Notes: generated by a model not told the origin, from the letters alone. 32,000 nucleotides of DNA from Promethearchaeota archaeon (GCA_016933055.1 JAFGBS010000009.1:600001-632000), one strand, 5' to 3'; shown: positions 1-30,551, counted from the first letter of the stretch. Numbers and translations are program-made.

Positions 1-101
1 ATTTTGTTTACATATACTGTGCCAAAACTCTCAGATACGTTAAACATCTTGTCTGCAGTTCCCAAAATATTAATGCATAAATCTAAACTAAGACAACGCA
101 T
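1..101 (-). CDS. Possible 5' end of a gene running off the left edge (MRCLSLDLCINILGTADKMFNVSESFGTVYVNK...)
   Basis: ATG at 101 on the minus strand with 33 stop-free codons to the window edge, divergent from the RimK-like gene. Too short to assign a function. Confidence 0.3.
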   Translation of the reverse strand, partial: MRCLSLDLCINILGTADKMFNVSESFGTVYVNK

Positions 102-342
102 TTAAAAGTAATTTTTTTCCCCTAAAATTCACTATGAAGATAATAAAAAAAAAAATAAATTCAGAACATTTATAACGGATTATAAAAGCGTATGGAGGAC
201 TGTTTTTCTCTTAACGATCACGACGTTTCTCTAGTACCGATTTTACAGAAATATTCCGATAATGCTAAACTTCATTCTATTTTTCCCATAAGTTTTTTAA
301 TGTGAATCTAACAAAGAAACAAAAACAACGTTAAAAATTGAT

Positions 343-1272
343 ATGTCTGAAAAAAACGATATGACGGGATGGATCCTTTTCAAAAGAAAGTCTGAAACTA
401 CTCCAGGTTGGGGATCTTATGCCGTAAATAGATTAATGGATGTAGCACCTTCCCGAAACATTTCCCTTAAAGTAATTTCCCCCGATAATTTTGATCTTAT
501 TATTACCCGAGAGAAAAAGACCACATGGATAAATCAACAAGTTGAAAAAATTCCTGATTTTGTCATAACCAGAGTAGGTTCTGGTGCAAGTTATTTTTCT
601 CTTGCAATAATTCGACATTTAGAACGGTTAGGAGTACATACCTTTAATTGCTCAAAGGGAATAGATATCGTTCGGGATAAATTATATGCCCAACAAGTTT
701 TGGTTCAAAGCAACCTTCCTGTTCCAAAAACAATTCTAGTAAAATTCCCGGTGAACATCGATTTAGTAGAAAGATATCTAGGTTTTCCCGTAATAGTAAA
801 AACTGTATTCGGTTCTAAAGGAGCTGGAGTATTTCTATCGGAAGACAGAAGATCATTCGTCGATCTGATGCAGCTTTTAGAAGCAACTAAACCTAATGTG
901 AATATCATCCTTCAAGAAACAATTACCACTAGTCTTGGAAAAGATTTGCGAGTTTTTGTAGTTGGTGGAAAAATAATAGGATGTATGCAAAGAACCAGTA
1001 AAACTGACAGCTTTAAAGCAAATTTCTCCGCAGGGGCAGATGTAGAGGCATATCCTATCAATTCTGAAATCGAATGGCTAGCAAGACAAAGCGCACGAAC
1101 TTTATCATTGGATATTGCGGGAATTGATCTCTTATTTGATGGGGAGCATTTTAAAATATGTGAGGTCAATGCATCCCCTGGATTTAATGGTCTTGAGCAA
1201 GCAAATCCAGGATTAAATGTTCCCAATGAAATATTTGATTACATATCCTTGCGATTGGGAGAGTTTGATTAA
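343..1272 (+). CDS. RimK/LysX-family ATP-grasp amino acid (alpha-L-glutamate-type) ligase
   Basis: Motifs PDFVITRVGS, RDKL...LPVPKT, FPVIVKTVFGSKGAGV, ILQE, DLRVFVVGG, FKANFSAG, GIDLL and CEVNASPGF are typical of RimK-family ATP-grasp enzymes. Alternative start at 361. Confidence 0.9.
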   Translation: MSEKNDMTGWILFKRKSETTPGWGSYAVNRLMDVAPSRNISLKVISPDNFDLIITREKKTTWINQQVEKIPDFVITRVGSGASYFSLAIIRHLERLGVHTFNCSKGIDIVRDKLYAQQVLVQSNLPVPKTILVKFPVNIDLVERYLGFPVIVKTVFGSKGAGVFLSEDRRSFVDLMQLLEATKPNVNIILQETITTSLGKDLRVFVVGGKIIGCMQRTSKTDSFKANFSAGADVEAYPINSEIEWLARQSARTLSLDIAGIDLLFDGEHFKICEVNASPGFNGLEQANPGLNVPNEIFDYISLRLGEFD

Positions 1273-1274
1273 AA

Positions 1275-3128
1275 TTGAAATTTCAATCCTCACCTAAAAT
1301 ATATCAAAATTTTAAGAGTGCGACACCAGAGAATACCCTAAAAAGCCTAACAAATTGTATGCAGCCCTATTTTTTACCACACATGCAATTTCGAGTAAAA
1401 CCTAATTTATATGGCACCGCATGGGGTGCTCAAATGACTTTATTTGGGAATTATGATTATAATGTGAGATCTAATGGAAAGGGAGACACTCCACACTTGG
1501 CAATCTTGAGTGCCCTGGCAGAATTCACTGAGCGAGTTCAGAGTTTTTTACCTTTTCCAATTGCGAATTATCTGCCGCGACTAATGTTAAAACCAGATTT
1601 GGATAAAAATCATCCAGAATATCAAAAATGGGTGGACTTCAATAAAATTTTGAAAAATGAAACGAATAATAAAACTCCCGCTTTTGAACCTTTTGATACC
1701 ACATTTTACAAATTTTACGATGTTATTGAGAACAAGGAGATATACTTGGATCAATCATTCCTTATTTCTCCTAGTAATGGTCGAGCTGCAGGAAATACAT
1801 ATGAAGAAGCAGTAGTAATGGCGATCACTGAAGTCTTCGAACGATATACGACCAGAATGGTTTTATTGAATAATGAAGCTGTCCCCACAATTTCTCTTGA
1901 ATTTTTATCGAATGATCTTCAGGAATATATCAATTCCATAACAAAGGATGATTTCGAGGTATATATCAAAGATTTTTCATTGGGTAAAGGTTTTCCCGTG
2001 GTGGGTATGTTATTCGGCACTTCTGATGTGGGTTATGTATTGAAATCGAGCTCCGATTTATCTTTGAACCGTGCAGTTTCGCGGTGCTTAGGAGATTTTT
2101 TCCAGAATTTCGATTCAGTTCCGCACCGTTTAACGAATGCCGCAAAAAAATCACATACAATGATTCAATATTATGAACAATTCCGGGAGATATTAGAATC
2201 AGAAGTTTCATTACAAGAGCTAAAAGCTAATCGTTTTTCCAGTGACTCTGTATATTCACCAAAGGAACTTGGGTTTTTAGCACAAGATACAGATTTTGAT
2301 TTTGAAACATGGGATTATAGTCATAATGATTTTTATAACGAACTCCTACAATTAATTGAGTTTTATAAATTGAATAAATACCGTCTTTATGTCCGTGATT
2401 TGGGCTGGTTAGGTTTTCCTACTGTCATGGTTTACTCTCCAGATCTTCAACAATATAAATTTTCAATTTACGATCGTGTAGCTTTTTTTGATAAACGAGT
2501 TTTTCCTGGAGAAAAAGTTCGAAAATTCCGAAAAGCGTTATTACAAGATGAAAAGGCAATATTTCATCCCACTATTTTAGATATATTACGAGATCCCACT
2601 TTTCTGTACTTATTTATATTCAAACGCCCAGAATCTGTAGGAATAATGAGAGGATTACCTCATGTGGGAACCCAATTATCTAGTTTTAATGCATGGTATT
2701 TTCTTGGATTATTAGCATTTTATTTTAAAGACATTCATCTTTCTCAAAAATATTTTAGTTGTTTATTAATTGATGAACCAAAAAATGATTTTGCCAAGTG
2801 TGCAATTGAATATTTGAGCTCTCTACCTACAAATGCATGGAGTGGAAATCGAATTGATCCTCAAGTAATAAGAGAAGTTACTGTTAGTCTCACTCATTTT
2901 CCGAAAGAATTACTAGTAGGCGTACTGGATACACTTTCATCAACACAAACTGTGAAAGAAATATTGCAACCTTTGATTGTACCTTGTCCATATTATGAAA
3001 CCACTTGTGTGGGTTGTGAACATAAAGATTATTGTACTTACGGCAAGTTATCTCCCATCCTGCAAAAGTTAGTTAAGGATAAACCAGATAAATTATATTT
3101 TTTTACCGATCCTCTAAGTTCTCCATAA
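1275..3128 (+). CDS. YcaO-domain protein with C-terminal TPR-like helices and a 4-Cys cluster
   Basis: YcaO ATP/Mg motifs NGKGDTPHLAILSALAEFTER and SNGRAAGNTYEEAVVMAITEVFER; C-terminal CPYYETTCVGCEHKDYC. TTG start 2 nt after the RimK-like stop. Confidence 0.88.
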   Translation: MKFQSSPKIYQNFKSATPENTLKSLTNCMQPYFLPHMQFRVKPNLYGTAWGAQMTLFGNYDYNVRSNGKGDTPHLAILSALAEFTERVQSFLPFPIANYLPRLMLKPDLDKNHPEYQKWVDFNKILKNETNNKTPAFEPFDTTFYKFYDVIENKEIYLDQSFLISPSNGRAAGNTYEEAVVMAITEVFERYTTRMVLLNNEAVPTISLEFLSNDLQEYINSITKDDFEVYIKDFSLGKGFPVVGMLFGTSDVGYVLKSSSDLSLNRAVSRCLGDFFQNFDSVPHRLTNAAKKSHTMIQYYEQFREILESEVSLQELKANRFSSDSVYSPKELGFLAQDTDFDFETWDYSHNDFYNELLQLIEFYKLNKYRLYVRDLGWLGFPTVMVYSPDLQQYKFSIYDRVAFFDKRVFPGEKVRKFRKALLQDEKAIFHPTILDILRDPTFLYLFIFKRPESVGIMRGLPHVGTQLSSFNAWYFLGLLAFYFKDIHLSQKYFSCLLIDEPKNDFAKCAIEYLSSLPTNAWSGNRIDPQVIREVTVSLTHFPKELLVGVLDTLSSTQTVKEILQPLIVPCPYYETTCVGCEHKDYCTYGKLSPILQKLVKDKPDKLYFFTDPLSSP

Positions 3129-3139
3129 ATAGAACCGGA

Positions 3140-4585
3140 TTATTTGGAGATCAGAATTTCGTCAAACAATTTTTTATCTGGAACTAGGGACTGAAACAGA
3201 TTTTTTTTGAATTCTCCCTTTTTAGAGATAAATTTCCGAGCGATTTTGTCAATAGCTATTACCCCCATGACCGTTTGAATGAAACTTTCTATTAGATCGT
3301 CCAAACCCAATCCTAGTCTATTAAACTCTCTTCTATCCATTAATAAGAGTCTATTCACATCGGGTTCCCCCCATGTTCCATCAGGATTACGTACGGATAA
3401 ATTCGTTCCCAACATTTCCCATGAATCAATAGTATCGGCTATTTCGTTACTTAGATGTTTACGTGCACGTCTTGCATACATTGCGATAGGACGAAATCCT
3501 TCAGGTGAAGAACAGACCATCATGCGCAAATCAGCTGCAAAAAATTCGTGTTTCAAATTAGGAACTGTACCGATGTGATATAATCGACTTAGTTTCATGT
3601 TGGAACTCCATTGAGAATTTCCTATGAGACTTTGTACGATGAATTTATCATACGGATAGTCTTTTTCCATAAATTGCTGTAGTTCGTGTTGATTCATAAT
3701 TGTGTATACTCCTTGTCCTGCATTTGAGTAAGGATTTTTAATGCAAGCAAACCCTCCCATTCGCTCAACCCATAAGGGAATTTCATTTTTGCTCAAATCC
3801 CAAATTGTTTCGGGTACTCGAATTTGCAATCCGGTATCCTTATAATCCGCATTGAAAAAGTCATATGCTTTTGCAGCTATTAATTTGTTTCTTCCCCCTG
3901 CCAGACAAGCTAAGATCGGATTATAAATCATGGTTTTTGTAATAATAGGAATTTGAGTCCATGGTTTTTGTGTCACATACCGAAATGCAGCTTTAATTTG
4001 AATCCATTGATTATGTTGATTCCTTACATACATTATCCCCTCCTCAAATTTAACGGGAGCGTTAGGATCATCGTAATGAAATTCGACCGCATATACCATA
4101 TCATCAACAAGATCCGCCAAAGTTCGTGCATATCCAATATTCTCCATAGGATTTTTATCATAAATAACGGCTAGTTTTCCATCTGGCAAGTTTTTCTTCT
4201 TTTTCATCGTTGGTAGAAATGAATTTGCTAATAAACGCTCATATCCCCCTCTTCTTTGTTCTTCAATATATGGCATGCTCTTATTTCCGGAAGGACAGGA
4301 ATTAGTCTCGATTAATACCATTTGACGAACTCCTCTGCCAGTAGTGACTGCAAATAGATCTGCTCCCGCCCATCTGAAGTATTTTGGTTTAAAATCGAGC
4401 AATTCACGAAGTTTTTCCTCTTCTACTTGGGGATGAAAATGACAATATCGATAAATAATTTGTTCATTCGTTAAATTCAGGAAATATCGTACCAATGGAT
4501 GTAATTGGGCGTTTAAGACCTTTGGATAATAATGTTCATCAGAATCAAACTCTCCTGGGTGTATTTCGACAGCATAATATAGCAT
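3140..4585 (-). CDS. Circularly permuted ATP-grasp (glutathione-synthetase/CP-ATP-grasp-like) amidoligase, uncharacterised
   Basis: The metal-binding segment GADLF...LIETNSCPSG lies near the N-terminus and is followed by IKNPYSNAGQGV, FIVQ and DLRMMV, the motif order of circularly permuted ATP-grasps. ATG at 4585 preferred; in-frame TTG at 4600. Confidence 0.75.
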   Translation of the reverse strand: MLYYAVEIHPGEFDSDEHYYPKVLNAQLHPLVRYFLNLTNEQIIYRYCHFHPQVEEEKLRELLDFKPKYFRWAGADLFAVTTGRGVRQMVLIETNSCPSGNKSMPYIEEQRRGGYERLLANSFLPTMKKKKNLPDGKLAVIYDKNPMENIGYARTLADLVDDMVYAVEFHYDDPNAPVKFEEGIMYVRNQHNQWIQIKAAFRYVTQKPWTQIPIITKTMIYNPILACLAGGRNKLIAAKAYDFFNADYKDTGLQIRVPETIWDLSKNEIPLWVERMGGFACIKNPYSNAGQGVYTIMNQHELQQFMEKDYPYDKFIVQSLIGNSQWSSNMKLSRLYHIGTVPNLKHEFFAADLRMMVCSSPEGFRPIAMYARRARKHLSNEIADTIDSWEMLGTNLSVRNPDGTWGEPDVNRLLLMDRREFNRLGLGLDDLIESFIQTVMGVIAIDKIARKFISKKGEFKKNLFQSLVPDKKLFDEILISK

Positions 4586-4610
4586 AATTCTCTTTCCCAA
4601 ATTAGATTAT

Positions 4611-5945
4611 TTATAAAAATAATGAGTATAGCACAAGATAAAGAATCCCACATATTAAGTGGATCATTGCAAACAAGGCTCCATTTTTAGTCAATGTCTT
4701 AAAAGTAAATCCTTCTACTTTATTTCGTGTAGCGATTGTGAGAGTCATAACGTCACATGCAGCACCTTGTGGTAGGAAATTTCCCCCCATATTAATTCCG
4801 ATCAATAGTGCAATGATCAATGGATTAAGAGGAAGCTCAGGATTCAATAAAATCAATCCATCAGTAATTGCTAAAAACATTAGAGCTGTAGGAGAATTTG
4901 CCAGAAATCCCGACAATAGGCTACTGAGTACTAAAATAAAAATAGATATTGCTAAGGGACTCTTTGGAAGTATGAGGTTTAAGAAATTCGTTATAATTTC
5001 AATGGTTCCATTAGCAATCATGCATCCAATAATAATATATAAACTCATAAAAAAGAACATCACTTCCCATTCTACTGTCTTAAAATAATCTGCAAGTTTT
5101 TCCTTGTTGATAAGAATCATAAATATTGATCCGACAAGAGCAACTAAAAATGCTTGAGTGGTTAGGAAAAAGGAAATAAACACTATCCCAATAAATATTG
5201 AATTGAGAATAAATTTTTTTTTATTATCAATAACTGCTGATGGAACTAAAATATCTCTCACGAGTTCTTTCCGGAAAGGATCAACCCGTTGATTTTTTTT
5301 TAAAAGAAATAGATCGAGTAATAACATAGTAATTATTAGAACTACGAATCCAAAACCCATAACATTTTTCACGAACCATAGAGTATCTACCGATTCGTTC
5401 ACAAAATGGCCAGCGATGATAATATTCTCAGAGCTGGAAAACGGAGTAATCAAGCTGCCAATGTTTATGCAGATGGTCATTCCAAACAGATACGGAGCGG
5501 ACTTAATCTCCAATATACGGCATGTTCGGATTATAAGAGGCGCAAAAATGATTGCTACCGTAACATCTGCAACCACAGCAGATAATAAAACCGTAATAGT
5601 GCAAATAACATAAAATAGCAGTCGATCATTTCCTTTTGTTAATCTTATCGTCTTAATTGCTATATATTGAAATATCTTCTGGCGTTCGGCTACTGCGATC
5701 ACAACTTGCATTCCAAAAATGAATAATATGGGTTTGAATTCTATCATTCCCACAATGGCTTCATAATATGAATTGAATTCCACCTCTCCTAAGGTGATTG
5801 GTAACTCTTCAGTAAATATCAATATGCCAGCTGATAATAAGGCGGCAAATATCGCCACTGTCAAGTAATCAAGTGTTTCGGTTGAGAATACAACCATTAC
5901 AATTACAAACAAGACTGCAACACTAATAATAGAAAACAAGTTCAT
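4611..5945 (-). CDS. ArsB/NhaD/SLC13-like (ion transporter superfamily) permease
   Basis: About 11-12 hydrophobic segments; two-fold repeated motifs LLSAVVADVT...NIGSLITPFSSSENI and LLSGFLANSP...NMGGNFLPQGAACDV resemble CitMHS/P-protein-type transporters. Confidence 0.85.
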   Translation of the reverse strand: MNLFSIISVAVLFVIVMVVFSTETLDYLTVAIFAALLSAGILIFTEELPITLGEVEFNSYYEAIVGMIEFKPILFIFGMQVVIAVAERQKIFQYIAIKTIRLTKGNDRLLFYVICTITVLLSAVVADVTVAIIFAPLIIRTCRILEIKSAPYLFGMTICINIGSLITPFSSSENIIIAGHFVNESVDTLWFVKNVMGFGFVVLIITMLLLDLFLLKKNQRVDPFRKELVRDILVPSAVIDNKKKFILNSIFIGIVFISFFLTTQAFLVALVGSIFMILINKEKLADYFKTVEWEVMFFFMSLYIIIGCMIANGTIEIITNFLNLILPKSPLAISIFILVLSSLLSGFLANSPTALMFLAITDGLILLNPELPLNPLIIALLIGINMGGNFLPQGAACDVMTLTIATRNKVEGFTFKTLTKNGALFAMIHLICGILYLVLYSLFL

Positions 5946-6369
5946 TGTGGGAAATCTGATTTTTTAGGAAATTTATTACGATAATCGTATATAATGTTTA
6001 TTCTCGTCCTAAGTAGTAAACTCTCTCATTTCAAAATCGAAAGAAACTTTCAAATAGGTGGATTTAAGGCAGTGATGTAAAACTTTTTGTTAGCAATCCA
6101 TTTTACACAATCCCATTCTCTATATCGAGATTTTTCACATTATTATTCTGTAAAAGCTTTCAAGAAACAAGATGTATATATCATCGTCTTACAGATTTCT
6201 CAGAAGGATCTATCTGATTCAACATTAATATATTATGAAATCGGCATTTTCCCATTAATATGCATTAAAAAAAAAAAAAACAACAAAATTTTAAACAACA
6301 AAAAACAACAGAAAACGATCATATTTGGCAAAATCAAATATGTGAGAAGTGATGTCATTGAGCATGGTA

Positions 6370-6846: not shown

Positions 6847-7899
6847 ATGGGATCTGTTATTGCATATTTTGATTCATCACATGATCTTGCAGAAGAAATT
6901 ATAATGGCAGCTGGGAAAACACCGTATAAAATTCTCGGGGATGTAAACGTTTCAAATAATCCAGCGGATAAATATTTATTTGAAACTTTTTGTCCCGCTG
7001 CACGCAGTATGCTAACCGAAGCACTTCATTATTCTGAAAAATGGGAAGGAATTATTATAGCTCATGGTTGTGATGCTACACATCGACAATTTGATATCTG
7101 GAAAAAACATGTTCAAAATCCATTCATTTATTTTGTAAACAACCCATTGAGTCGTGTAAGCAAAAGTGGTAGGGATTTTTATCGTACCGAATTACAAACC
7201 TTCATAGAAGCATTAGAAAAACAATATAATGTTAACATCTCGAATGAGAAGCTTCAAAATGCCATTAAAATTTCTAATCAAGTGAAAAAATTACTCCAAA
7301 ATTTAGGAAAACTACGCGAATTCAAAGATATTCCTAATCACGAATATTTCAACATTTGCAAGATAGCGGTTCAAGAGGATAAAAAATCCGTGATCCCTCT
7401 GCTAGAACGAAAATTATCTGAATGGGGAACATATTCTGCTTTCCCTACAAAATTCTCGCGAATCCTATTAACGGGTAGTGATGTAAACTATCCGGAATTC
7501 ATGAATCTGTTGGATAAGGCTAAATTGCGTGTAGTAAGAGACGATTTATCGATCGGTGAGAGATATTACACTGCACTTATTCCTGAGATGCAGGATCCTT
7601 TGGATGCATTAATAGAATATCAATATCTCATTCCTCGACCTGCTACCAAACATCCCGCGGAACCTCGCTTAGATTTTTTGCTTAGAGCCTATGAGAGCTC
7701 CCATATAGAGGGCATTCTCTCACAAAATCTGAAATTTTGTGAAACTTATGCTTTTGATTCCGTATGGTTATCAAACACATTTAAACAAAAAAATATCCCT
7801 TCTATTCATCTGGAACGGGATTTTATTGCAGAAGATCAGCAATTATTTACTCGCTTGGAGGTATTTAAAGAATTACTTAATTCCAAAAGGAGGATTTAA
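6847..7899 (+). CDS. 2-hydroxyacyl-CoA dehydratase / benzoyl-CoA reductase family subunit (HgdB/BcrC-like)
   Basis: Three conserved Fe-S ligand contexts FCPAARS, HGCDAT and KFCETY; RILLTGS; C-terminal TRLEVF. Confidence 0.85.
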   Translation: MGSVIAYFDSSHDLAEEIIMAAGKTPYKILGDVNVSNNPADKYLFETFCPAARSMLTEALHYSEKWEGIIIAHGCDATHRQFDIWKKHVQNPFIYFVNNPLSRVSKSGRDFYRTELQTFIEALEKQYNVNISNEKLQNAIKISNQVKKLLQNLGKLREFKDIPNHEYFNICKIAVQEDKKSVIPLLERKLSEWGTYSAFPTKFSRILLTGSDVNYPEFMNLLDKAKLRVVRDDLSIGERYYTALIPEMQDPLDALIEYQYLIPRPATKHPAEPRLDFLLRAYESSHIEGILSQNLKFCETYAFDSVWLSNTFKQKNIPSIHLERDFIAEDQQLFTRLEVFKELLNSKRRI

Positions 7900-7902
7900 T
7901 TC

Positions 7903-9171
7903 ATGAATTCAGCACAAGAATCACCACAAGTCAAAAAAAAATTAGTTAAAACCCTAAAAACCTCTCAAAAATTAAAAAAGATTATGGCATGGTACTTTAT
8001 TAAGGGAAAACTCTATTCAAAACTCCCATGGAAACAAGTTGCTTGGAGTGTATCAGGTTTTCCCACGGAATTCCTTTGGGCATATAACGTGTACCCATTT
8101 TTACCGGAGAATTGTGCTACCATTGCTGCGGCTCGTCATAAATCACAAGAATTAATCGAATATGCAGAAGCGTGTGGATACTGTAGGGACCTTTGCAGTT
8201 ATTTTAAGACAAATATTGGAGCGTACGATTCAAAATTACCCGCACAATTTGGAGGGTTAGAAAAGCCAGACTTAATGACTTGTACAAACACAGTCTGCGA
8301 CACACACGTAAAATGGTTCCAAACCCAATCTAGAAATCTCAATGTTCCCTTATTTGTTTGGGACATTCCCGCTTACGTGTCTGGATCCGATGAGAAGACC
8401 ATGAATCGCTATCTAGATTATGTGACGGACCAGTTCTGGGAATTTACAGATTTTATGTACGACCATACAGGTAAGAAATTTAACCAGAAAAAATTTATTA
8501 AAACTGTAAAAAAAGCTGATGAACTGGCAGTTCTTTGGCGTGAATTATTCAAATACCGGAAGCAAATCCCTGCTCCATTAGGTTATGCAGACACCCTTGG
8601 AGATGTATTTCCAATGTTTGCATTACCCGGTAAAAATCGAGGTATAAAATTCTATCGAGAACTGGTAGAAGAAGTCAAAGAAGCCGCAAAAGTAGGAAAG
8701 GGTGTGGTTGAAGATGAAAAATACCGATTATTATTTGAAGGTATTCCCTTTTGGTATAAGATTAAATTTTTCCATCAGCTAGCAAATTTCGGAGCAGTTG
8801 TTACATATGAACCATATACGTGGAGCTTCGGTGTACGACGGGAGATTTTTGATGATGATATAGATAGATCTTTACGAGAAATGGCTAAATCCCTAATCCA
8901 CACACCCTATTGGTACAATTTGGAGACAAGAGTCGAGTATTTCAAGAAAGTGATTGAAGAATATAAAATTGATGGGGTAATATTGCACAATAACCTTTCT
9001 TGCAGACCGAGTACGACGGGTATGGCAGACTTAAAACAAATCATTCAGGAAGAACTCGGTATACCTGTTCTTTTATTGACCTGTGATATGAATGATCCCA
9101 GAGCATTCTCAGAAGCGCCAATGCAAACACGATTAGAAAGTTTTATAGAATTACTTGAATCTAGAGCTTAA
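7903..9171 (+). CDS. 2-hydroxyacyl-CoA dehydratase / benzoyl-CoA reductase family subunit (HgdA/BcrB-like)
   Basis: Motifs PEN, CRDLCSY, NTVCD, RLLFEGIPFW, SCRP and TRLESF; starts 3 nt after the partner subunit gene. Confidence 0.88.
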   Translation: MNSAQESPQVKKKLVKTLKTSQKLKKIMAWYFIKGKLYSKLPWKQVAWSVSGFPTEFLWAYNVYPFLPENCATIAAARHKSQELIEYAEACGYCRDLCSYFKTNIGAYDSKLPAQFGGLEKPDLMTCTNTVCDTHVKWFQTQSRNLNVPLFVWDIPAYVSGSDEKTMNRYLDYVTDQFWEFTDFMYDHTGKKFNQKKFIKTVKKADELAVLWRELFKYRKQIPAPLGYADTLGDVFPMFALPGKNRGIKFYRELVEEVKEAAKVGKGVVEDEKYRLLFEGIPFWYKIKFFHQLANFGAVVTYEPYTWSFGVRREIFDDDIDRSLREMAKSLIHTPYWYNLETRVEYFKKVIEEYKIDGVILHNNLSCRPSTTGMADLKQIIQEELGIPVLLLTCDMNDPRAFSEAPMQTRLESFIELLESRA

Positions 9172-11430: not shown

Positions 11431-11991
11431 TTAGTTATTTAAAGTCCAAGCCCACGCTCTTCCGACTTTTTGGGTTCGTTGAATGACTTCTCGCTCTTCT
11501 AGTTCACTCATTACTTTCCACACTTCAGAGTTGGTCATTTTGAAATATCTTCGAATTTCAGGAGTAGTTAGGGTTTCGCCACTAAGCATATTCATTATTA
11601 TTCTTTTTATTTCATCGTAATCTTGTGAAATTGTCGTAAGGTCACCATCCTCGCTCATTTCCTCCTTTTGATCCATTTGATAGATGATATCTTCTGCGAT
11701 CTCATGAAGTCGTTTAAGTTTCATATCTATGTTTCGAGGTTTCATGAATAAGGCACAAAGTTCAAGCCCTCGTGGAAAAGCAACTACATAGAAGTTATCG
11801 TATAAAATTGCTGTGGGTTTCAAACCCGAATTTCCTCCTCGAAAACTTAAATAGAAATTCATTAGGAAATTCTCATAGTCTATATTTATCTCATTTTCTA
11901 CAAACGTGACAACACTCTTAAGAATGGGTCCTTCTATGAGATCAAATCCGAGTTTTGCTGCCGAAATTATCTCATTTTCATCAAAATTCAT
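11431..11991 (-). CDS. Two-domain protein: N-terminal longin/uDENN-like domain and C-terminal winged helix-turn-helix
   Basis: N-terminal GFDLIEGP (FDxxxGP hairpin seen in longin/uDENN families); C-terminal LTTPEIRRYFKMTNSEVWKVMSELEEREVIQRTQKVGRAWAW is a wHTH. AAGGAG lies upstream of the ATG. Confidence 0.6.
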   Translation of the reverse strand: MNFDENEIISAAKLGFDLIEGPILKSVVTFVENEINIDYENFLMNFYLSFRGGNSGLKPTAILYDNFYVVAFPRGLELCALFMKPRNIDMKLKRLHEIAEDIIYQMDQKEEMSEDGDLTTISQDYDEIKRIIMNMLSGETLTTPEIRRYFKMTNSEVWKVMSELEEREVIQRTQKVGRAWAWTLNN

Positions 11992-12006
11992 TATAGTTCT
12001 CTCCTT

Positions 12007-12552
12007 TCATGCTCCTTTCTCCTTTTCAATTTCTTCCATGATCACATTAATGATTTCCACTAAAATTCTCCGCTGTTCCTGATTTATCGCAGTGATACCA
12101 TAAGTGGGTACTTGAAGGACATCTTTAACCATTTTTGGATTTAGGTGCCCATCCAAGTCTTGTTTATTAGCAAGAGCGACAATTTTTGCACAGTCGTCTG
12201 GAAACAAATTTTTTGTATGGCTTACTAGTTCTTTTGTACTAAGAACGTTTTTGGGAGAAGAGTCGGTAACAATAAACACAATATCTGAACCTTCTATATA
12301 TTGGCTCATGTAATGTTTTAGATATGCTTTTTGTCCTCCAAAATCCCAAATTTTTAATTTAAATCCTTCAAAATCTAGTGTTCCCAAATCAAAACCTTGA
12401 GTTGGATTATATTTTTTTTCGATATTTTTCTGCGTAAGGAGTTTCATCAGTGTAGTTTTTCCCACTGCGGGAGAACCCACAAAGGAAATTTTTCCTACCG
12501 CGGGACGTGTTTTTACTTTAGGGATGTCCAGTGGGTTTTCATCAATTGTCAT
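12007..12552 (-). CDS. Small GTPase, Arf/Rag-like Ras superfamily (Asgard type)
   Basis: G1 GSPAVGKTT, G2 PTQG, G3 WDFGGQ, G4 NKQD, G5 TAI. Likely start ATG 12552 (MTIDENP), giving 181 aa. Confidence 0.92.
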   Translation of the reverse strand: MTIDENPLDIPKVKTRPAVGKISFVGSPAVGKTTLMKLLTQKNIEKKYNPTQGFDLGTLDFEGFKLKIWDFGGQKAYLKHYMSQYIEGSDIVFIVTDSSPKNVLSTKELVSHTKNLFPDDCAKIVALANKQDLDGHLNPKMVKDVLQVPTYGITAINQEQRRILVEIINVIMEEIEKEKGA

Positions 12553-12703
12553 CTTATCTTCTCTCGGAACAAGTAGTATGAAGAAAGAAAAAACGAAAAG
12601 TAATTTCATTTCTGGTAACATGGAGATATTACTCGGATATATCACATGAAATAACAAAAATCTCACAAAATACTTAATAGAACACAAGCTGAAAATTGAA
12701 TAC

Positions 12704-13288
12704 ATGGAGCTAGTAAAATCGAAATCTACGTTGCAAATGGCTATTACAGGAGAAACTGAAGCTATTGTTAAATATGATGCATATTCTAAGAAAGCGAAAG
12801 ATGAGGGTCTGCCAAATATAGCCTATCTGTTTGATGCATTAGTCCAAGCCGAACAAATTCATAATCGGAACCATTATAATGCTCTAAAGTCAGTATCCGA
12901 AGTCCAATTTACTCCTACGATCCCTCCCAAAATCCATGTTGGCTCTACTTTGCAAAATCTGCAAGATTCAATTAAGGGAGAACAATACGAATCCAAAAAT
13001 ATGTATCCTGATTTCATAAAAGAGATACGTGATGAATTAAGGGAAGAAAATGGACGTGTTGCTAAATTGTCCTTTGCATGGGCAGAAGAAGTAGAATTGG
13101 GACATGCAGATGCTTTGAAAATTGCACTTAAAGCGTTAGAGAGTGGGCATGATCTTGATGTACAAGCTATATTCGTTTGTAGAGTATGTGGGAATTTGGT
13201 ATTTAACGAACCTGAAGAATTTTGTTCAGTGTGTGGTCATGATCAACGCTTCTTCATGAAAATCAATAGGTCTGGAGATGAGAAATAA
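12704..13288 (+). CDS. rbr: Rubrerythrin
   Basis: Di-iron motifs GETEA...AEQIH and GEQYE...EVELGH; C-terminal rubredoxin-like CRVC...CSVCG. Confidence 0.93.
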   Translation: MELVKSKSTLQMAITGETEAIVKYDAYSKKAKDEGLPNIAYLFDALVQAEQIHNRNHYNALKSVSEVQFTPTIPPKIHVGSTLQNLQDSIKGEQYESKNMYPDFIKEIRDELREENGRVAKLSFAWAEEVELGHADALKIALKALESGHDLDVQAIFVCRVCGNLVFNEPEEFCSVCGHDQRFFMKINRSGDEK

Positions 13289-28196: not shown

Positions 28197-30551
28197 ATGC
28201 CATGTATGTATTGCGGTTCTACTACGATTGCATATTCTTGTGAGAAATGCGGTAATCAATTCTGTTCGGATCATGTGATCACAACCGAGTATTATAGTTG
28301 TAAGAAACATGGGATAAAATACACTACTGCTCAAGCTGAACAATCTGATTATCGTTGTACTCTTATTCCAAAAAGTTCCTGTCCCGACTGTTCGAAAGAA
28401 TTAACCATTGATAAGTTACCATCTGGTCAATATTTTCTTAACTGTCCTAGTTGCTCTTGGGATTCTTTCAATGGAACTCCGAAAATCCATTATATCACAA
28501 AAAAATTAGTATTTGACGAAGGTTCTCGATCAGGATTGATTCAAAGACCTGAAGAATGTGGATTAAAATTGAAGATCAACCAAGGAGTCCAGATTTGCTC
28601 TAATTGTTTCATTCAATCCTTAGAAAGTGGTGGTGTAACATCATTCGCCACTATTAAAAATATATACAATATCGATACTCGTACGATTGTGCGAATTATA
28701 AATAAATTAAAGAAAGACAAACTCATTACAGGACAAATCGACACGAAAAATCAAGTTTTCATTTATATACCCGATGATTCTCGAGCATATATAAATGATG
28801 AAATTCAAAAAAATGGAAAAATCTCAATGCTACAGATTGCAAACCGATTCAATGTTCCCGAGGACAATGGTTTAGAATTAATGTACGAAGTTTTGAAAGA
28901 ATTTGAAATTCATGGAACCTTTGACACAAAGAAAAAAAACTACTATAGTATAGATTTCCTGAACGAATATATTGTAAAAACCGTCGATGAGAAAGGCAGA
29001 GTCTCCATCCAAGAAATGAGTGATATATTGGGTACATCAGTAGATATCGTGAAATATTATGTAATTGAATTATTCAAGTCTCAGAAGTTGGATGCGTATT
29101 TTGCAGATAGCGGTAAACAAATTGTATCGAAAAATAAACTGAAATCTGAAGTAGAATCATATTGTAAAGAACACGGATTATTTAAGCTGACAGATGCTGC
29201 AAAACATTTCAACGTAGCTGTAGAACTCATTCGAAAATCTTTGGTCGCACTCATTAAAGAAAAACGTATTCGTGGATTATTTACACAGAAAAAAGAATTC
29301 ATAACAGAAGAAGAATTATCCAGCCGTATTAAGAGTGTCACCCGTGTTTATCGAACTATGAAATTGCGAGAACTAGCCTTAAAACTGGGAATAACAGAAT
29401 TAAGAGTTGAAGAAACTTTAGCCAGTTTGATTTCACGTGGAGCTATTTATGGATTTATTGACATGAATCGTCGAGAATTTGTCGCTGATAGACAACAACC
29501 TACAACAATGGGTCCCACAGTTATTCCTTTAGATGACACGACACAAACTACCGGTAGCGTGGAAGTACTGCGAGAATATGATTTTGTAGGGGGTCAACTA
29601 CACTTTAAAGTTGTGGTAAAAAACCACACAGATAAAGTCATCACTGACATCAAAATCATATTGGATGCGCCAAGTTCTTACAGGAAACAGAGTGATATCT
29701 TGAAAGTCTCAACCATTTCCCCGCACAATTCTAGAGGTATTGATTTTTATCTCGAGCCCGTAGAATGTGGTATCTCAACAATAGGGGGGACTGTGATCTA
29801 TAAAGATGCGACGGGAAAGCCTCACACTATTCATATTAGACCTAAAGAAGTTCAAATCAAATGTCCTTTAGTATCAAAAACTCTAGATACCATAGAGGAT
29901 TGCCAGATTACTATTCAAAATCTTCCAAGTGATGCACGAGCATTTTTGATAGCAGATCTGGATCCAAAACTCGCTTATCGTGCAGCATTTCGGGCTATTA
30001 CCAATTTTGATACTCGAAATGTCACCAGTTTGGAACTTTCTGATCCAGATGATTACAAGGCTGAAGCGTGGTTCTCGTCCGAAGCTAAGGTTACTGGTGG
30101 GCGCATCATCACTCGAATCGCCGTATCGGGGAAGAATCAGAGTTTAGAGATTCGCGTGTGGTGTAACGATCCTGGACAATTAACAGGATTTCTGGCTAAA
30201 ATCATTGAATTACTCTTCCTGGAAATTAATATCGTTAGGAAGGTAAAAGCAGAAGAACGTCAGCGCACCTTAGATGTAATGTCTATAACACAGAACCTAA
30301 TTACTGCTAGTGATTTTTGTGCTGTTAGATATAAAGCTAAGGATATATTATTAAAATTAGAAGATACGCATTATCGTATGTCACGTGTAGTGGGTAATAC
30401 AGATCCTACACTTGCTAAGATTCAGTATTGGATAGAAAAACTTCAGAAATATGACGAGGAAGAGAAAATCCAAGAGAAAGAAGCTGATTCGTTAATGAGT
30501 GATATTGAAGGCTTCCAAAACACCCTAGCTCGAAGTTTAGCACCCACATAA
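28197..30551 (+). CDS. Multidomain protein: AN1-type Zn finger and further Cys pairs, tandem PCI-like winged helices, beta-sandwich/platform C-terminus
   Basis: CMYC...CEKCGNQFCSDH; CPDC, CPSC, CSNC; repeated G-x-(I/F)-D/T...Y/F...helix-G(K/R)(I/V)S units; C-terminal LHFKVVVKN...IDFYLEPVECGISTIGGTVIYKD. Confidence 0.75.
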   Translation: MPCMYCGSTTIAYSCEKCGNQFCSDHVITTEYYSCKKHGIKYTTAQAEQSDYRCTLIPKSSCPDCSKELTIDKLPSGQYFLNCPSCSWDSFNGTPKIHYITKKLVFDEGSRSGLIQRPEECGLKLKINQGVQICSNCFIQSLESGGVTSFATIKNIYNIDTRTIVRIINKLKKDKLITGQIDTKNQVFIYIPDDSRAYINDEIQKNGKISMLQIANRFNVPEDNGLELMYEVLKEFEIHGTFDTKKKNYYSIDFLNEYIVKTVDEKGRVSIQEMSDILGTSVDIVKYYVIELFKSQKLDAYFADSGKQIVSKNKLKSEVESYCKEHGLFKLTDAAKHFNVAVELIRKSLVALIKEKRIRGLFTQKKEFITEEELSSRIKSVTRVYRTMKLRELALKLGITELRVEETLASLISRGAIYGFIDMNRREFVADRQQPTTMGPTVIPLDDTTQTTGSVEVLREYDFVGGQLHFKVVVKNHTDKVITDIKIILDAPSSYRKQSDILKVSTISPHNSRGIDFYLEPVECGISTIGGTVIYKDATGKPHTIHIRPKEVQIKCPLVSKTLDTIEDCQITIQNLPSDARAFLIADLDPKLAYRAAFRAITNFDTRNVTSLELSDPDDYKAEAWFSSEAKVTGGRIITRIAVSGKNQSLEIRVWCNDPGQLTGFLAKIIELLFLEINIVRKVKAEERQRTLDVMSITQNLITASDFCAVRYKAKDILLKLEDTHYRMSRVVGNTDPTLAKIQYWIEKLQKYDEEEKIQEKEADSLMSDIEGFQNTLARSLAPT

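Follow-up and report, generated by a model that had tools for sequence, protein, structure and literature searches.

Positions 343 to 5,945 of the DNA stretch from a Promethearchaeota archaeon analysed here (32,000 nucleotides, referred to as the window) carry four neighbouring genes: two for ATP-driven ligases that form amide bonds, one for YcaO, an amide-activating enzyme, and one for an anion permease. We consider it quite possible, as a tentative reading, that the RimK-family ligase and an unnamed, predicted circularly permuted ATP-grasp ligase, termed G3, constitute a horizontally mobile two-ligase module building a small, anionic, peptide-like metabolite that probably contains glutamate, and that YcaO and the permease might have been added to the module in this lineage. 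YcaO is a rare local addition to a recurring, unstudied pair of ligases.

Gene order, boundaries and conservation of the locus

The four genes form two convergent units (Table 1). The RimK-like gene extends from an ATG at 343 to a TAA at 1270–1272, and the YcaO gene begins with a TTG preceded by GGAGAG 12–17 nt upstream. The public record places the YcaO start 36 codons downstream of TTG 1275. Two homologs of 68% identity conserve these 36 N-terminal residues, which can still be recognised in homologs of 25% identity. TTG 1275 therefore stands as the start, and with it the gap of 2 nt, a likely site of translational coupling. The stop codons of YcaO (3126–3128) and G3 (3140–3142, minus strand) face each other tail to tail across 11 nt. 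Upstream of G3, the permease ends with a stop codon at 4611–4613, leaving a gap of 10 nt if G3 starts at TTG 4600 or of 25 nt if it starts at ATG 4585, which has GGGAAAGAG upstream. An earlier note made from the sequence of this DNA had given the same three spacings, all of which were borne out, and had also remarked that the usual partners are missing. Indeed, TfuA, E1/ThiF-like, SagB/nitroreductase, and transglutaminase domains were absent from the window ORFs of at least 90 aa. Neither TfuA (PF07812) nor AstE/AspA was found across the whole 91%-complete genome, and no RRE partner for YcaO was found.

Table 1. Features of the four-gene locus, numbered from the first letter of the window
Feature	Position	Strand	Details
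RimK-family alpha-L-glutamate-type ATP-grasp ligase	343..1272	+	309 aa; preATP-grasp and ATP-grasp domains
Spacer between RimK stop and YcaO TTG start	1273..1274	+	2 nt; sequence read directly
YcaO	1275..3128	+	617 aa; YcaO domain at residues 67–391, helical C-terminal domain, Cys4 site
Convergent junction of YcaO and G3 stops	3129..3139	.	11 nt; sequence read directly
G3, predicted circularly permuted ATP-grasp ligase, unnamed family	3140..4585	-	481 aa; motif order and predicted fold
CitMHS/ArsB-type (ion-transporter superfamily) anion permease	4611..5945	-	444 aa; PF03600

Counting that of the present locus, we found the four-gene set in just four contigs, all from a single narrow Asgard lineage. 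The genes are adjacent in all four, and the permease always lies next to G3, inverted in one contig and duplicated in another. Its repetition in three further contigs makes the arrangement more than a coincidence. The three are from close relatives with common flanks (an aminotransferase upstream and Roadblock downstream), so that its conservation counts as weak evidence for a function. At the RimK/YcaO junction, the relatives have an 11-nt overlap (L002), a 4-nt gap (P0004 contig), or 110 nt (P0005 contig, with a short start call). Because the trio including YcaO occurs in these four contigs only, the argument for a role of YcaO is its close coupling to RimK in the operon (gaps of 2 and 4 nt, an overlap of 11 nt) and not broad conservation. 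The trio proposed earlier is thus not widely syntenic, whereas the pair of G3 and the RimK-like ligase does recur.

The two ATP-grasp ligases and the permease

The RimK-like protein passed the curated cutoffs for PF08443 (2.3e-41; 141.9 bits, cutoff 21), PF18030 (2.1e-11; 44.4 bits, cutoff 26.4), and TIGR00768 (205.5 bits, cutoff 143.4), and it contains both domains and the ATP/Mg residues of the RimK family. The catalytic residues K153, Q191, R203, D262, E274, and N276 do not vary among 25 relatives. Its scores were under every equivalog cutoff (bits/cutoff): MptN, the second-best NCBIfam match, 150.6/350; S6 ligase, 135.2/331; LysX, 124.3/275.6; and CofF, 89.3/300. Neither G3 nor YcaO accompanies its closest relatives (51% identity), which stand alone. 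RimK-family enzymes form alpha-Glu peptide bonds, which would offer YcaO a backbone amide as substrate.

G3 had no Pfam match at E ≤ 10, no NCBIfam match at E ≤ 0.01, and no PDB sequence match at E ≤ 10. We judged permuted topology by the position of the Mg-binding ExN motif before the Lys/Gly-loop, the hinge Gln, and the DxR motif, together with a fold match to permuted members. In G3, the invariant E93-x-N95-S-C-P-S-G precedes K283, Q318, and D352-x-R354; hhalign aligned G3 248–322 to RimK 120–195, and the ExN of RimK sits at 274–276. With the AF2 model (pTM 0.84), the best Foldseek matches were yeast and human glutathione synthetases (1m0w, 2hgs), 3n6x, 3k1t, and GspS, with a probability of 1.0 and E of 2.6e-9 for 1m0w and E of 1e-9 to 1e-5 among related folds. 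The TM-scores were moderate, at 0.35–0.46 against permuted-fold structures (0.42–0.44 for 3n6x) with 9–14% identity in the structural alignments, and at 0.51–0.53 against Atlas clusters. Motif order and the modelled fold show G3 to be an ATP-grasp enzyme of circularly permuted topology that resembles eukaryotic glutathione synthetase most. The earlier assignment to this fold is thus upheld by motifs and model, with no HMM support from Pfam or NCBIfam, and G3 does not belong to CP_ATPgrasp_1/2 (PF04174, PF14403). The same HMM searches leave G3 outside the Glutathione synthetase, GshA (PF08886), and GspS families. Every solved structure resembling G3 is a small-molecule acid-amine ligase.

With 3708 homolog clusters and members in at least 587 species genomes and scattered eukaryotes, the G3 family is large, very conserved, and unnamed. 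The identity of 57–60% between G3 and Bacteroidota members would also fit a macromolecular substrate and was counted against the pathway considered below.

Among the 57 bacterial G3 loci with enough downstream sequence, a second ATP-grasp ligase adjoins G3 in 47, an AstE/AspA deacylase in 50, and both in 45, giving an operon of G3, a GshB-like ATP-grasp, and an AstE/AspA-type deacylase. The usual partners of G3 are accordingly a GshB/RimK-like ligase and this deacylase, not the transglutaminase and alpha-E genes suggested before. YcaO was missing from all 57 loci. G014, a genome from another family in this archaeal order, has G3 and a RimK ortholog (46% and 45% identity) tail to tail, 4 nt apart, with neither YcaO nor a CitMHS-type permease at the locus. 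Most relatives in the order have no ortholog of the RimK-like protein, and this is the sole other one found among 60. Since it, too, converges on G3, the link across the convergent junction is real, and the view that the two units belong together, as G3 and the RimK-like ligase, is supported. Of the joint action of three enzymes envisaged earlier, the pairing of these ligases finds support in G014 and the bacterial loci, while the trio with YcaO is limited to the four contigs.

The permease matched PF03600 (CitMHS) well above the cutoff (4.1e-45; 154.8 bits, cutoff 31.9), followed by weaker matches to MamN, ArsB, and DASS. The previous designation "carboxylate-type" is a family label only. We know of no CitMHS-type permease that carries peptides, a point that was counted against the pathway along with the solitary nearest RimK relatives and the restriction of this YcaO version to close kin.

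The YcaO protein

The YcaO protein matched PF02624 over model positions 1–324 of 325 (4.9e-31; 108.7 bits, cutoff 25.7). Its S79/E83/E86 and N174/E178/E186/E189/R190 align to S71/E75/E78 and N187/E191/E199/E202/R203 of E. coli YcaO, and these ATP/Mg residues are invariant in 36 homologs; the full-length domain and the residues place it in the YcaO superfamily. Along its full length, the AF2 model (pLDDT 81.6, pTM 0.86) matched the fold of E. coli YcaO (4q84-86) best, with about 640 aligned columns and TM of 0.58–0.65. The C-terminal domain contains C-x6-C-x2-C-x5-C (C571, C578, C581, C587), with the cysteines at least 90% conserved in a 10-sequence alignment. The protein has a pI of 5.96 and a net charge of -7, and it is the only YcaO of the genome. 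Its relatives at 68–72% identity, in three contigs, carry the cluster. Four contigs with a distant YcaO (≤28% identity) have no RimK or G3 neighbour, and distant YcaOs of 550–620 aa with the same Cys motif lie in radical-SAM- and peptidase-rich clusters.

None of the three known YcaO classes accommodates this protein. The E. coli enzyme is now assigned to backbone thioamidation of uL16, and a strongly acidic pI of ~4.4 is the recognition mark of this type (Rice et al. 2026, PMC13063428). The locus protein scored 67 bits against the cutoff of 700 for NF040716, is far less acidic, and has the two-domain fold alone in common with that class. For the azoline-forming TOMM/SagD type, the score was 54.9 against 219.25 bits (TIGR03604), and no ThiF/E1 or nitroreductase domain occurs in the window ORFs of at least 90 aa. 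Azoline-forming YcaOs have a Pro-rich PxPxP C-terminus, and the present protein ends in ...FFTDPLSSP. The TfuA-associated thioamide-forming type (McrA type, TIGR03266) was likewise rejected, with 37 against 365 bits and TfuA not found in the 91%-complete genome. The ribosomal-protein substrate offered as an alternative in the earlier note is a weak analogy, given the RimK-like score far below the S6-ligase cutoff and the YcaO pI of 6.0 versus 4.4.

A possible pathway, its alternatives and related systems

The module might work in two ATP-dependent ligation steps. G3 would first phosphorylate a carboxylate and join it to an amine, as the structural relatives (glutathione synthetase, GspS, T. 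ferrooxidans-type GshA, YgiC/YjfC, and Cp1B) do; Cp1B, for example, couples a dicarboxylic acid and an amino acid (PMC12568646). The RimK-like enzyme would then add one or more alpha-linked L-Glu. Third, YcaO might phosphorylate a new backbone amide and replace or cyclise it, producing a thioamide, amidine, or azoline-type change, and, finally, the permease could move the anionic product or precursor across the membrane. The substrates, the order of the steps, the YcaO chemistry, and the direction of transport are what we infer. The points counted for this pathway are the G3/RimK pairing in G014, the second ATP-grasp beside G3 in 47/57 bacterial loci, the small-molecule fold relatives, the RimK/YcaO coupling, and the adjacency of the four genes. 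Among a free peptide, a protein tag, and a RiPP encoded elsewhere, the evidence leans towards a small non-ribosomal product. If true, a non-ribosomal YcaO substrate would be unprecedented, because all YcaOs characterised so far modify gene-encoded substrates, peptides or proteins produced by the ribosome (PMC13063428).

That precedent speaks for another account, which we regard as rather unlikely: the ligases could attach amino acids (Glu tails, for instance) to a gene-encoded protein or small peptide, and YcaO would then modify the backbone of this target, as in the case of E. coli uL16, with the AstE/AspA (M14-like) enzyme acting as an eraser in bacteria. The fit of the YcaO model to both domains of the E. 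coli enzyme, the peptidase-rich surroundings of distant Cys-motif YcaOs, and the unusual conservation of G3 are consistent with such tagging, and RimK and LysX target protein C-termini. Against it stand the moderate pI and low NF040716 score of YcaO, the lack of an RRE, E1-like, or TfuA partner, and the small-molecule ligases that make up all fold relatives of G3; moreover, archaea are not known to have bS6, the RimK target. A weak candidate substrate is a K/T-rich micro-protein. We found no conserved small ORF within positions 1–6000, and the micro-ORF lies 1.07–1.14 kb before the first letter of the window, between the upstream aminotransferase and the RimK gene. It occurs with its own TATA-like box upstream of RimK in this genome, in L002, and in the same-genus G001, and 12 relatives without the cluster lack it downstream of their aminotransferase ortholog. 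However, it is 1.4 kb from RimK in this genome and offers no acidic C-terminus to a RimK-type ligase; the G014 pair has no such ORF nearby, and comparable K-rich ORFs are found unlinked at other places. No feature ties the micro-ORF to the enzymes.

The absence of YcaO from the G014 pair and from all bacterial G3 loci, its association with the cluster only among close kin with common flanks, and the distant YcaOs lacking RimK or G3 neighbours would also be expected if YcaO acted independently on a substrate with its gene in another part of the genome while the two ligases, perhaps with the permease, made a metabolite. We consider this unlikely, as YcaO starts 2 or 4 nt after, or 11 nt into, RimK in three contigs and has a conserved N-terminus. 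This spacing implies co-transcription and probably coupled translation; YcaO is also wedged exactly between two otherwise direct partners, and the genome has no second YcaO. It is very improbable that the RimK-like enzyme has a cofactor role of its own, as MptN or CofF do, and adds Glu to tetrahydromethanopterin or F420 beside unrelated genes. The rank of MptN among the NCBIfam matches and the solitary nearest relatives fit this role, but the scores are far below both cutoffs, the sole ortholog among the relatives lies beside G3, and a protein missing from most of the order is unfit for a core cofactor step.

The two-ligase reading that we tentatively prefer can be compared with several known systems. 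The only ATP-grasp/YcaO gene association that our literature search turned up is the graspetide "branch 6" clusters with TfuA, before which, according to the authors, none had been reported (Makarova et al. 2022, PMC8939145). There, the ligases are graspetide-type macrocyclases, and their neighbours are TfuA and genes of RiPP-like or pheganomycin-like kind, whereas our locus has a RimK-type ligase and we found neither TfuA nor a precursor peptide. E. coli YcaO has the same two-domain build and ATP/Mg residues, and neither protein has a TfuA or E1-like partner. Apart from score and pI, the locus protein differs in its 15–16% identity, its extra C-terminal Cys4 site, and its operon coupling to RimK, whereas E. 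coli ycaO stands alone. The RimK family (RimK for S6 poly-Glu, RIMKLA/B as NAAG and beta-citrylglutamate synthases, MptN, CofF, and LysX) has family HMMs, both domains, and catalytic residues in common with the locus protein, which is set apart by its sub-equivalog scores, the lack of a LysW or lysine-pathway context, the co-occurrence of its subfamily with G3 in the order, and the absence of a known bS6 substrate in archaea. The glutathione-type and other acid-amine ligases (1m0w, 2hgs, GspS/TryS, YgiC/YjfC, T. ferrooxidans-type GshA 3k1t, and Cp1B of E-64 biosynthesis, 9cjn) resemble G3 in the permuted ATP-grasp fold, and glutathione-type synthesis follows a similar logic, with two successive ATP-dependent ligations yielding a small peptide. 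The differences are the modest TM-scores and identities, the lack of a family HMM matching G3, and no sign of cysteine or thiol. In the uncharacterised bacterial operon of Saprospiraceae and others, the deacylase, which was not found in the present genome, takes part, and the partner ligase is GshB-like, only 23% identical to the true RimK-family protein found here; our locus adds YcaO and the permease and has convergent genes rather than one operon. Nevertheless, in both settings an orthologous permuted ligase stands beside a ligase of the GshB/RimK superfamily, and the G3–AstE/AspA pairs of Kariarchaeota and Heimdallarchaeota have the permuted ligase in common with this locus.

The four-gene cluster and its setting

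The earlier note had described a RimK-like gene and a YcaO gene converging on a circularly permuted ATP-grasp gene and a permease gene, and direct reading of the junctions in the sequence gave the same layout. The TAA of the RimK-like gene is separated from the TTG start of YcaO by 2 nt, the stop codons of YcaO and of the unannotated third gene (hereafter G3) lie 11 nt apart, tail to tail, and the permease stop precedes G3 by 10 or 25 nt for its alternative TTG and ATG starts, respectively. The public record places the YcaO start 36 codons further downstream. The long YcaO form and the 2-nt gap nevertheless stand, because two 68%-identical homologs conserve this N-terminal stretch of 36 residues and it can still be recognised at 25% identity. 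Family matches identify the permease as a CitMHS/ArsB-type transporter of the ion-transporter superfamily.

Features of the cluster and of related loci (L108, own-genome DNA around the window; L002, a relative's four-gene-cluster contig; L110 and L005, other loci; P0198, a protein of Entophlyctis luteolus)
Feature	Sequence	Position	Strand	Remarks
RimK-like gene	window	343-1272	+	TAA ends at 1272
YcaO	window	1275-3128	+	TTG start at 1275; GGAGAG 12-17 nt upstream
YcaO Cys motif	window	2985-3035	+	residues 571-587
G3	window	3140-4585	-	481 aa, unannotated; alternative TTG and ATG starts
CitMHS-type permease	window	4611-5945	-	upstream of G3
HGD-D family gene pair	window	6847-9171	+	
GTPase and 186-aa protein	window	11431-12705	-	GTPase at 12007-12705
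Multidomain protein	window	28197-30551	+	784 aa
Micro-ORF	L108	8857-8934		1067-1144 nt before window start
Micro-ORF	L002	891-989		
Micro-ORF	L110	2858-2956		
MscS-like ORF	L108	9264-9512	-	82 aa
G3 operon	L005	7001-10444		G3, GshB-like ATP-grasp, AstE/AspA deacylase
Tandem G3 copies	P0198	residues 88-577 and 650-1135		1136 aa

The source genome (3.76 Mb, 91% complete) belongs to an Asgard archaeon, probably from a sediment metagenome: among sequencing runs, this one metagenome was listed as containing the DNA, and no RNA run was. The GC content across the cluster (0.33–0.37) equals that of its surroundings and thus leaves no compositional trace of recent transfer. Scans for Rfam families and tRNAs in the window returned no match. 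Products of this genome include Arf-like GTPases, a Roadblock/LC7 protein and a DDRGK/UFM1-ligase/VPS28-like protein. Within the window, a 784-aa protein with Pfam matches to DDRGK, E3_UFM1_ligase, PCI and the VPS28 C-terminal domain looks like an Asgard fusion of eukaryote-like domains. Elsewhere in the window, an Arf/Roc-like small GTPase gene lies directly upstream of a gene for a 186-aa protein with no Pfam match, and two adjoining HGD-D family genes resemble an alpha/beta pair of 2-hydroxyacyl-CoA dehydratase or benzoyl-CoA reductase, with no activator gene among their annotated neighbours.

The G3 family and its recurring ligase partner

G3 has no match in Pfam (E ≤ 10), in NCBIfam (E ≤ 0.01) or among PDB sequences (E ≤ 10). 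Its invariant motif E93-x-N95-S-C-P-S-G, which is the Mg-binding ExN of ATP-grasp enzymes, stands about 190 residues ahead of K283 in a Lys/Gly-loop, the hinge residue Q318 and D352-x-R354; in the neighbouring RimK-like protein the order is K153, Q191, R203 and then E274-x-N276. Profile-profile alignment placed G3 residues 248–322 on RimK residues 120–195. The AF2 model of G3 (pTM 0.84) matched first yeast and human glutathione synthetases, then 3n6x (a CP_ATPgrasp protein) and 3k1t (a rare ATP-grasp-type GshA), and further the glutathionylspermidine/trypanothione synthetases, YgiC/YjfC and the E-64 ligase Cp1B, all with a probability of 1.0 and TM-scores of only 0.35–0.46. Motif order, profile alignment and predicted fold thus bear out the earlier call of a circularly permuted ATP-grasp, and G3 shares the permuted fold with these enzymes at moderate similarity. 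Membership in Pfam CP_ATPgrasp_1/2 did not hold: with the permuted fold and no Pfam match, G3 is a separate family.

This family comprises 3708 homolog clusters at 90% identity and is present in at least 587 GTDB species genomes. It is strikingly conserved, with a mean column identity of 76% across 30 sequences and 57–60% identity between the window's G3 and Saprospiraceae members. Homologs of 38–55% identity occur in chytrids, Mucoromycota, Fonticula, Trichinella and Trichuris, some eukaryotic members carrying the automatic name 'tubulin-tyrosine ligase family'. One chytrid protein contains two full-length ligase copies in tandem. The long forms, considered as possible fusions, were gene-model mergers or a tandem duplication in eukaryotes and had no Pfam match in metagenomic sequences, and no informative Rosetta-stone fusion was found among them.

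At 57 bacterial G3 loci with enough downstream sequence, a GshB-like ATP-grasp gene neighbours G3 in 47 and a gene of the AstE/AspA zinc deacylase family in 50 (both in 45), and neither YcaO nor a CitMHS permease occurs at any of them. The three-gene operon is found in Saprospiraceae and other phyla (L005 and most of loci L015–L094); at L005 a class-V aminotransferase gene comes next. In Kariarchaeota and Heimdallarchaeota, G3 is followed by the deacylase. G3 was found in only 6 of 400 Asgard genomes, and within the order of the source genome in just two besides it. One of the two is G014, a genome of another family, in which G3 (46% identity) and a RimK-family gene converge with 4 nt between their ends. 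The RimK-family gene encodes the only ortholog of the window's RimK-like protein found among 60 relatives (45% identity, 2e-83), the other relatives having only paralogs of about 30% identity. Because G014 pairs both orthologs tail to tail, the RimK-G3 pair is the conserved core. It parallels the bacterial G3-GshB-like pair, although the RimK-like and GshB-like partners are only 23% identical. The G014 locus has neither YcaO nor a CitMHS-type permease. Of the trio in the earlier note, the two ligases are therefore also paired in G014, whereas YcaO is absent there and from the bacterial G3 loci.

The window clade (five rows) is distinct in the G3 tree, with support of 100/99; the branch of the G014 copy is very long and joins near the Kariarchaeota and Heimdallarchaeota copies with weak support (89/75). 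The tree does not resolve at its base and so identifies neither a donor nor a direction of transfer. The patchy distribution suggests, without proving it, that the genes were acquired horizontally, and it warns against treating them as specific to Asgard archaea or as related to eukaryotes.

The RimK-like protein passes the family models (TIGR00768, 205 bits against a cutoff of 143; PF08443; preATP-grasp domain PF18030) and falls far under every equivalog cutoff, scoring 135/331 for S6 ligase, 151/350 for MptN, 124/276 for LysX and 89/300 for CofF. Its catalytic residues are invariant across 25 relatives. The closest relatives outside the order, with 51% identity, stand alone, so that the RimK subfamily as a whole is not tied to G3 or YcaO.

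A YcaO outside the recognised classes

The single YcaO of the genome matches PF02624 over the entire model and retains the residues aligned with S71/E75/E78 and N187/E191/E199/E202/R203 of E. coli YcaO, which are invariant in 36 homologs. Its AF2 model (pLDDT 81.6, pTM 0.86) resembles both domains of E. coli YcaO (4q84-86), at TM-scores of 0.58–0.65 and with about 640 aligned columns; heterocyclases and small McrA-type YcaOs match it in the catalytic domain only. The protein fits none of the three recognised YcaO classes. The SagD type scores 55 against a cutoff of 219, with no E1-like partner among window ORFs of 90 aa or more and a C-terminus of DPLSSP, not a PxPxP tail. The McrA type scores 37 against 365, and a search of the 91%-complete genome found no TfuA. 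A pI near 4.4 marks the E. coli-type group, which thioamidates uL16 (PMC13063428); here the pI is 5.96 and the equivalog score 67 against 700, and assignment to the uL16 type was rejected on these two grounds. Near the C-terminus, C571, C578, C581 and C587 form a C-x6-C-x2-C-x5-C motif that could bind a metal or an Fe-S centre. It is kept as C-x2-C-x2-C-x5-C in distant YcaOs of 550–620 aa, two of them in radical-SAM-rich clusters.

In a collection of 5.8 billion sequences, only three other proteins come near this YcaO (68–72% identity), the next matches having 28%. All three lie in the same four-gene cluster, with the permease inverted in one contig and duplicated in another, and the RimK-YcaO junction is an 11-nt overlap (L002), a 4-nt gap (the P0004 contig) or, with a short start call, 110 nt. 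These contigs share the window's flanks, namely an ADP-forming acyl-CoA-synthetase-like gene and an aminotransferase gene upstream and a Roadblock gene downstream; as evidence of function, the agreement among such close kin is weak. Neither RimK nor G3 occurs in four more distant YcaO contexts, two of which are rich in B12-radical-SAM and peptidase genes.

Possible substrates and comparison with known systems

The evidence supports a core two-ligase module, G3 with a RimK/GshB-type ligase, that moves between distant lineages and that in one Asgard lineage gained a RimK-coupled YcaO between the partners and an adjoining anion permease. A small-molecule pathway with YcaO tailoring is the most economical reading, because all structural relatives of G3 are ligases of small acids and amines, its recurring partner is a glutathione-synthetase/RimK-type enzyme, and the family of the bacterial third gene acts on N-acyl amino acids; we hold it tentatively, at slightly under an even chance. 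G3 would make an amide, RimK would add alpha-Glu, YcaO might activate one of the new backbone amides, and the permease might carry the anionic product or a precursor. The main rival, a protein or peptide substrate, draws on the gene-encoded substrates of all known YcaOs, the resemblance of the predicted fold to E. coli YcaO and the very high conservation of G3; set against the chemistry of the G3 relatives, we consider it distinctly less probable.

YcaO might also be an unrelated neighbour of the ligases, as its absence from the G014 and bacterial loci would allow; given the close coupling to RimK in this lineage, we regard this as unlikely. Complex prediction for YcaO and the RimK-like protein gave a score of 0.01, the mark being 0.32, which counts neither way. 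For a stand-alone cofactor role of the RimK-like enzyme, the lone relatives on one side and the low MptN and CofF scores and the G3 pairing on the other leave very little probability. Returning to the small-molecule pathway, its boldest form would make this the first YcaO on a non-ribosomal substrate, activating a backbone amide of an oligopeptide built by the two ATP-grasp enzymes, so that a small exported metabolite would carry a thioamide, amidine or azoline. An alpha-Glu tail from the coupled RimK enzyme is one example of where such an amide might lie, and the putative metal or Fe-S centre could supply sulfide, replacing TfuA. We judge this form improbable.

A Lys/Thr-rich micro-ORF (25–32 aa) with a TATA-like box and an SD-like site lies between the aminotransferase and RimK genes in the source genome, L002 and the same-genus genome G001; the L002 and G001 versions align (MG[SG]KGKQ[VI]KKKKT...). 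Its product was considered as a substrate and remains a weak lead: it co-occurs with the lineage and does not follow the orthologous aminotransferase gene in 12 relatives lacking the cluster, but it was not found near the G014 RimK-G3 pair, and similar K-rich ORFs occur unlinked in Bacteroidota (L036). The product has no acidic C-terminus for a RimK-type ligase. Between the micro-ORF and RimK lies an 82-aa ORF that by eye resembles part of an MscS-type mechanosensitive channel; it has the appearance of a decayed gene and falls in a 1.4-kb spacer that L002 lacks.

Our literature search found neither this cluster nor the G3 family described. The one ATP-grasp/YcaO association it returned was that of graspetide-type ligases with TfuA, whose authors state that none had been reported earlier (PMC8939145). 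With thousands of members spread over bacteria, Asgard archaea, fungi, nematodes and protists, the large, unnamed G3 family, for which Pfam has no model, now has a defined genetic context, and its recurring second ATP-grasp partner makes the product experimentally approachable. Operons of several amidoligases were reportedly already known from Iyer et al. in 2009; the new element is that a RimK-family ligase and YcaO are coupled in one operon, an arrangement that the literature search did not find elsewhere. If this YcaO acts on the products of the ligases, YcaO chemistry would reach beyond ribosomal peptides and proteins.
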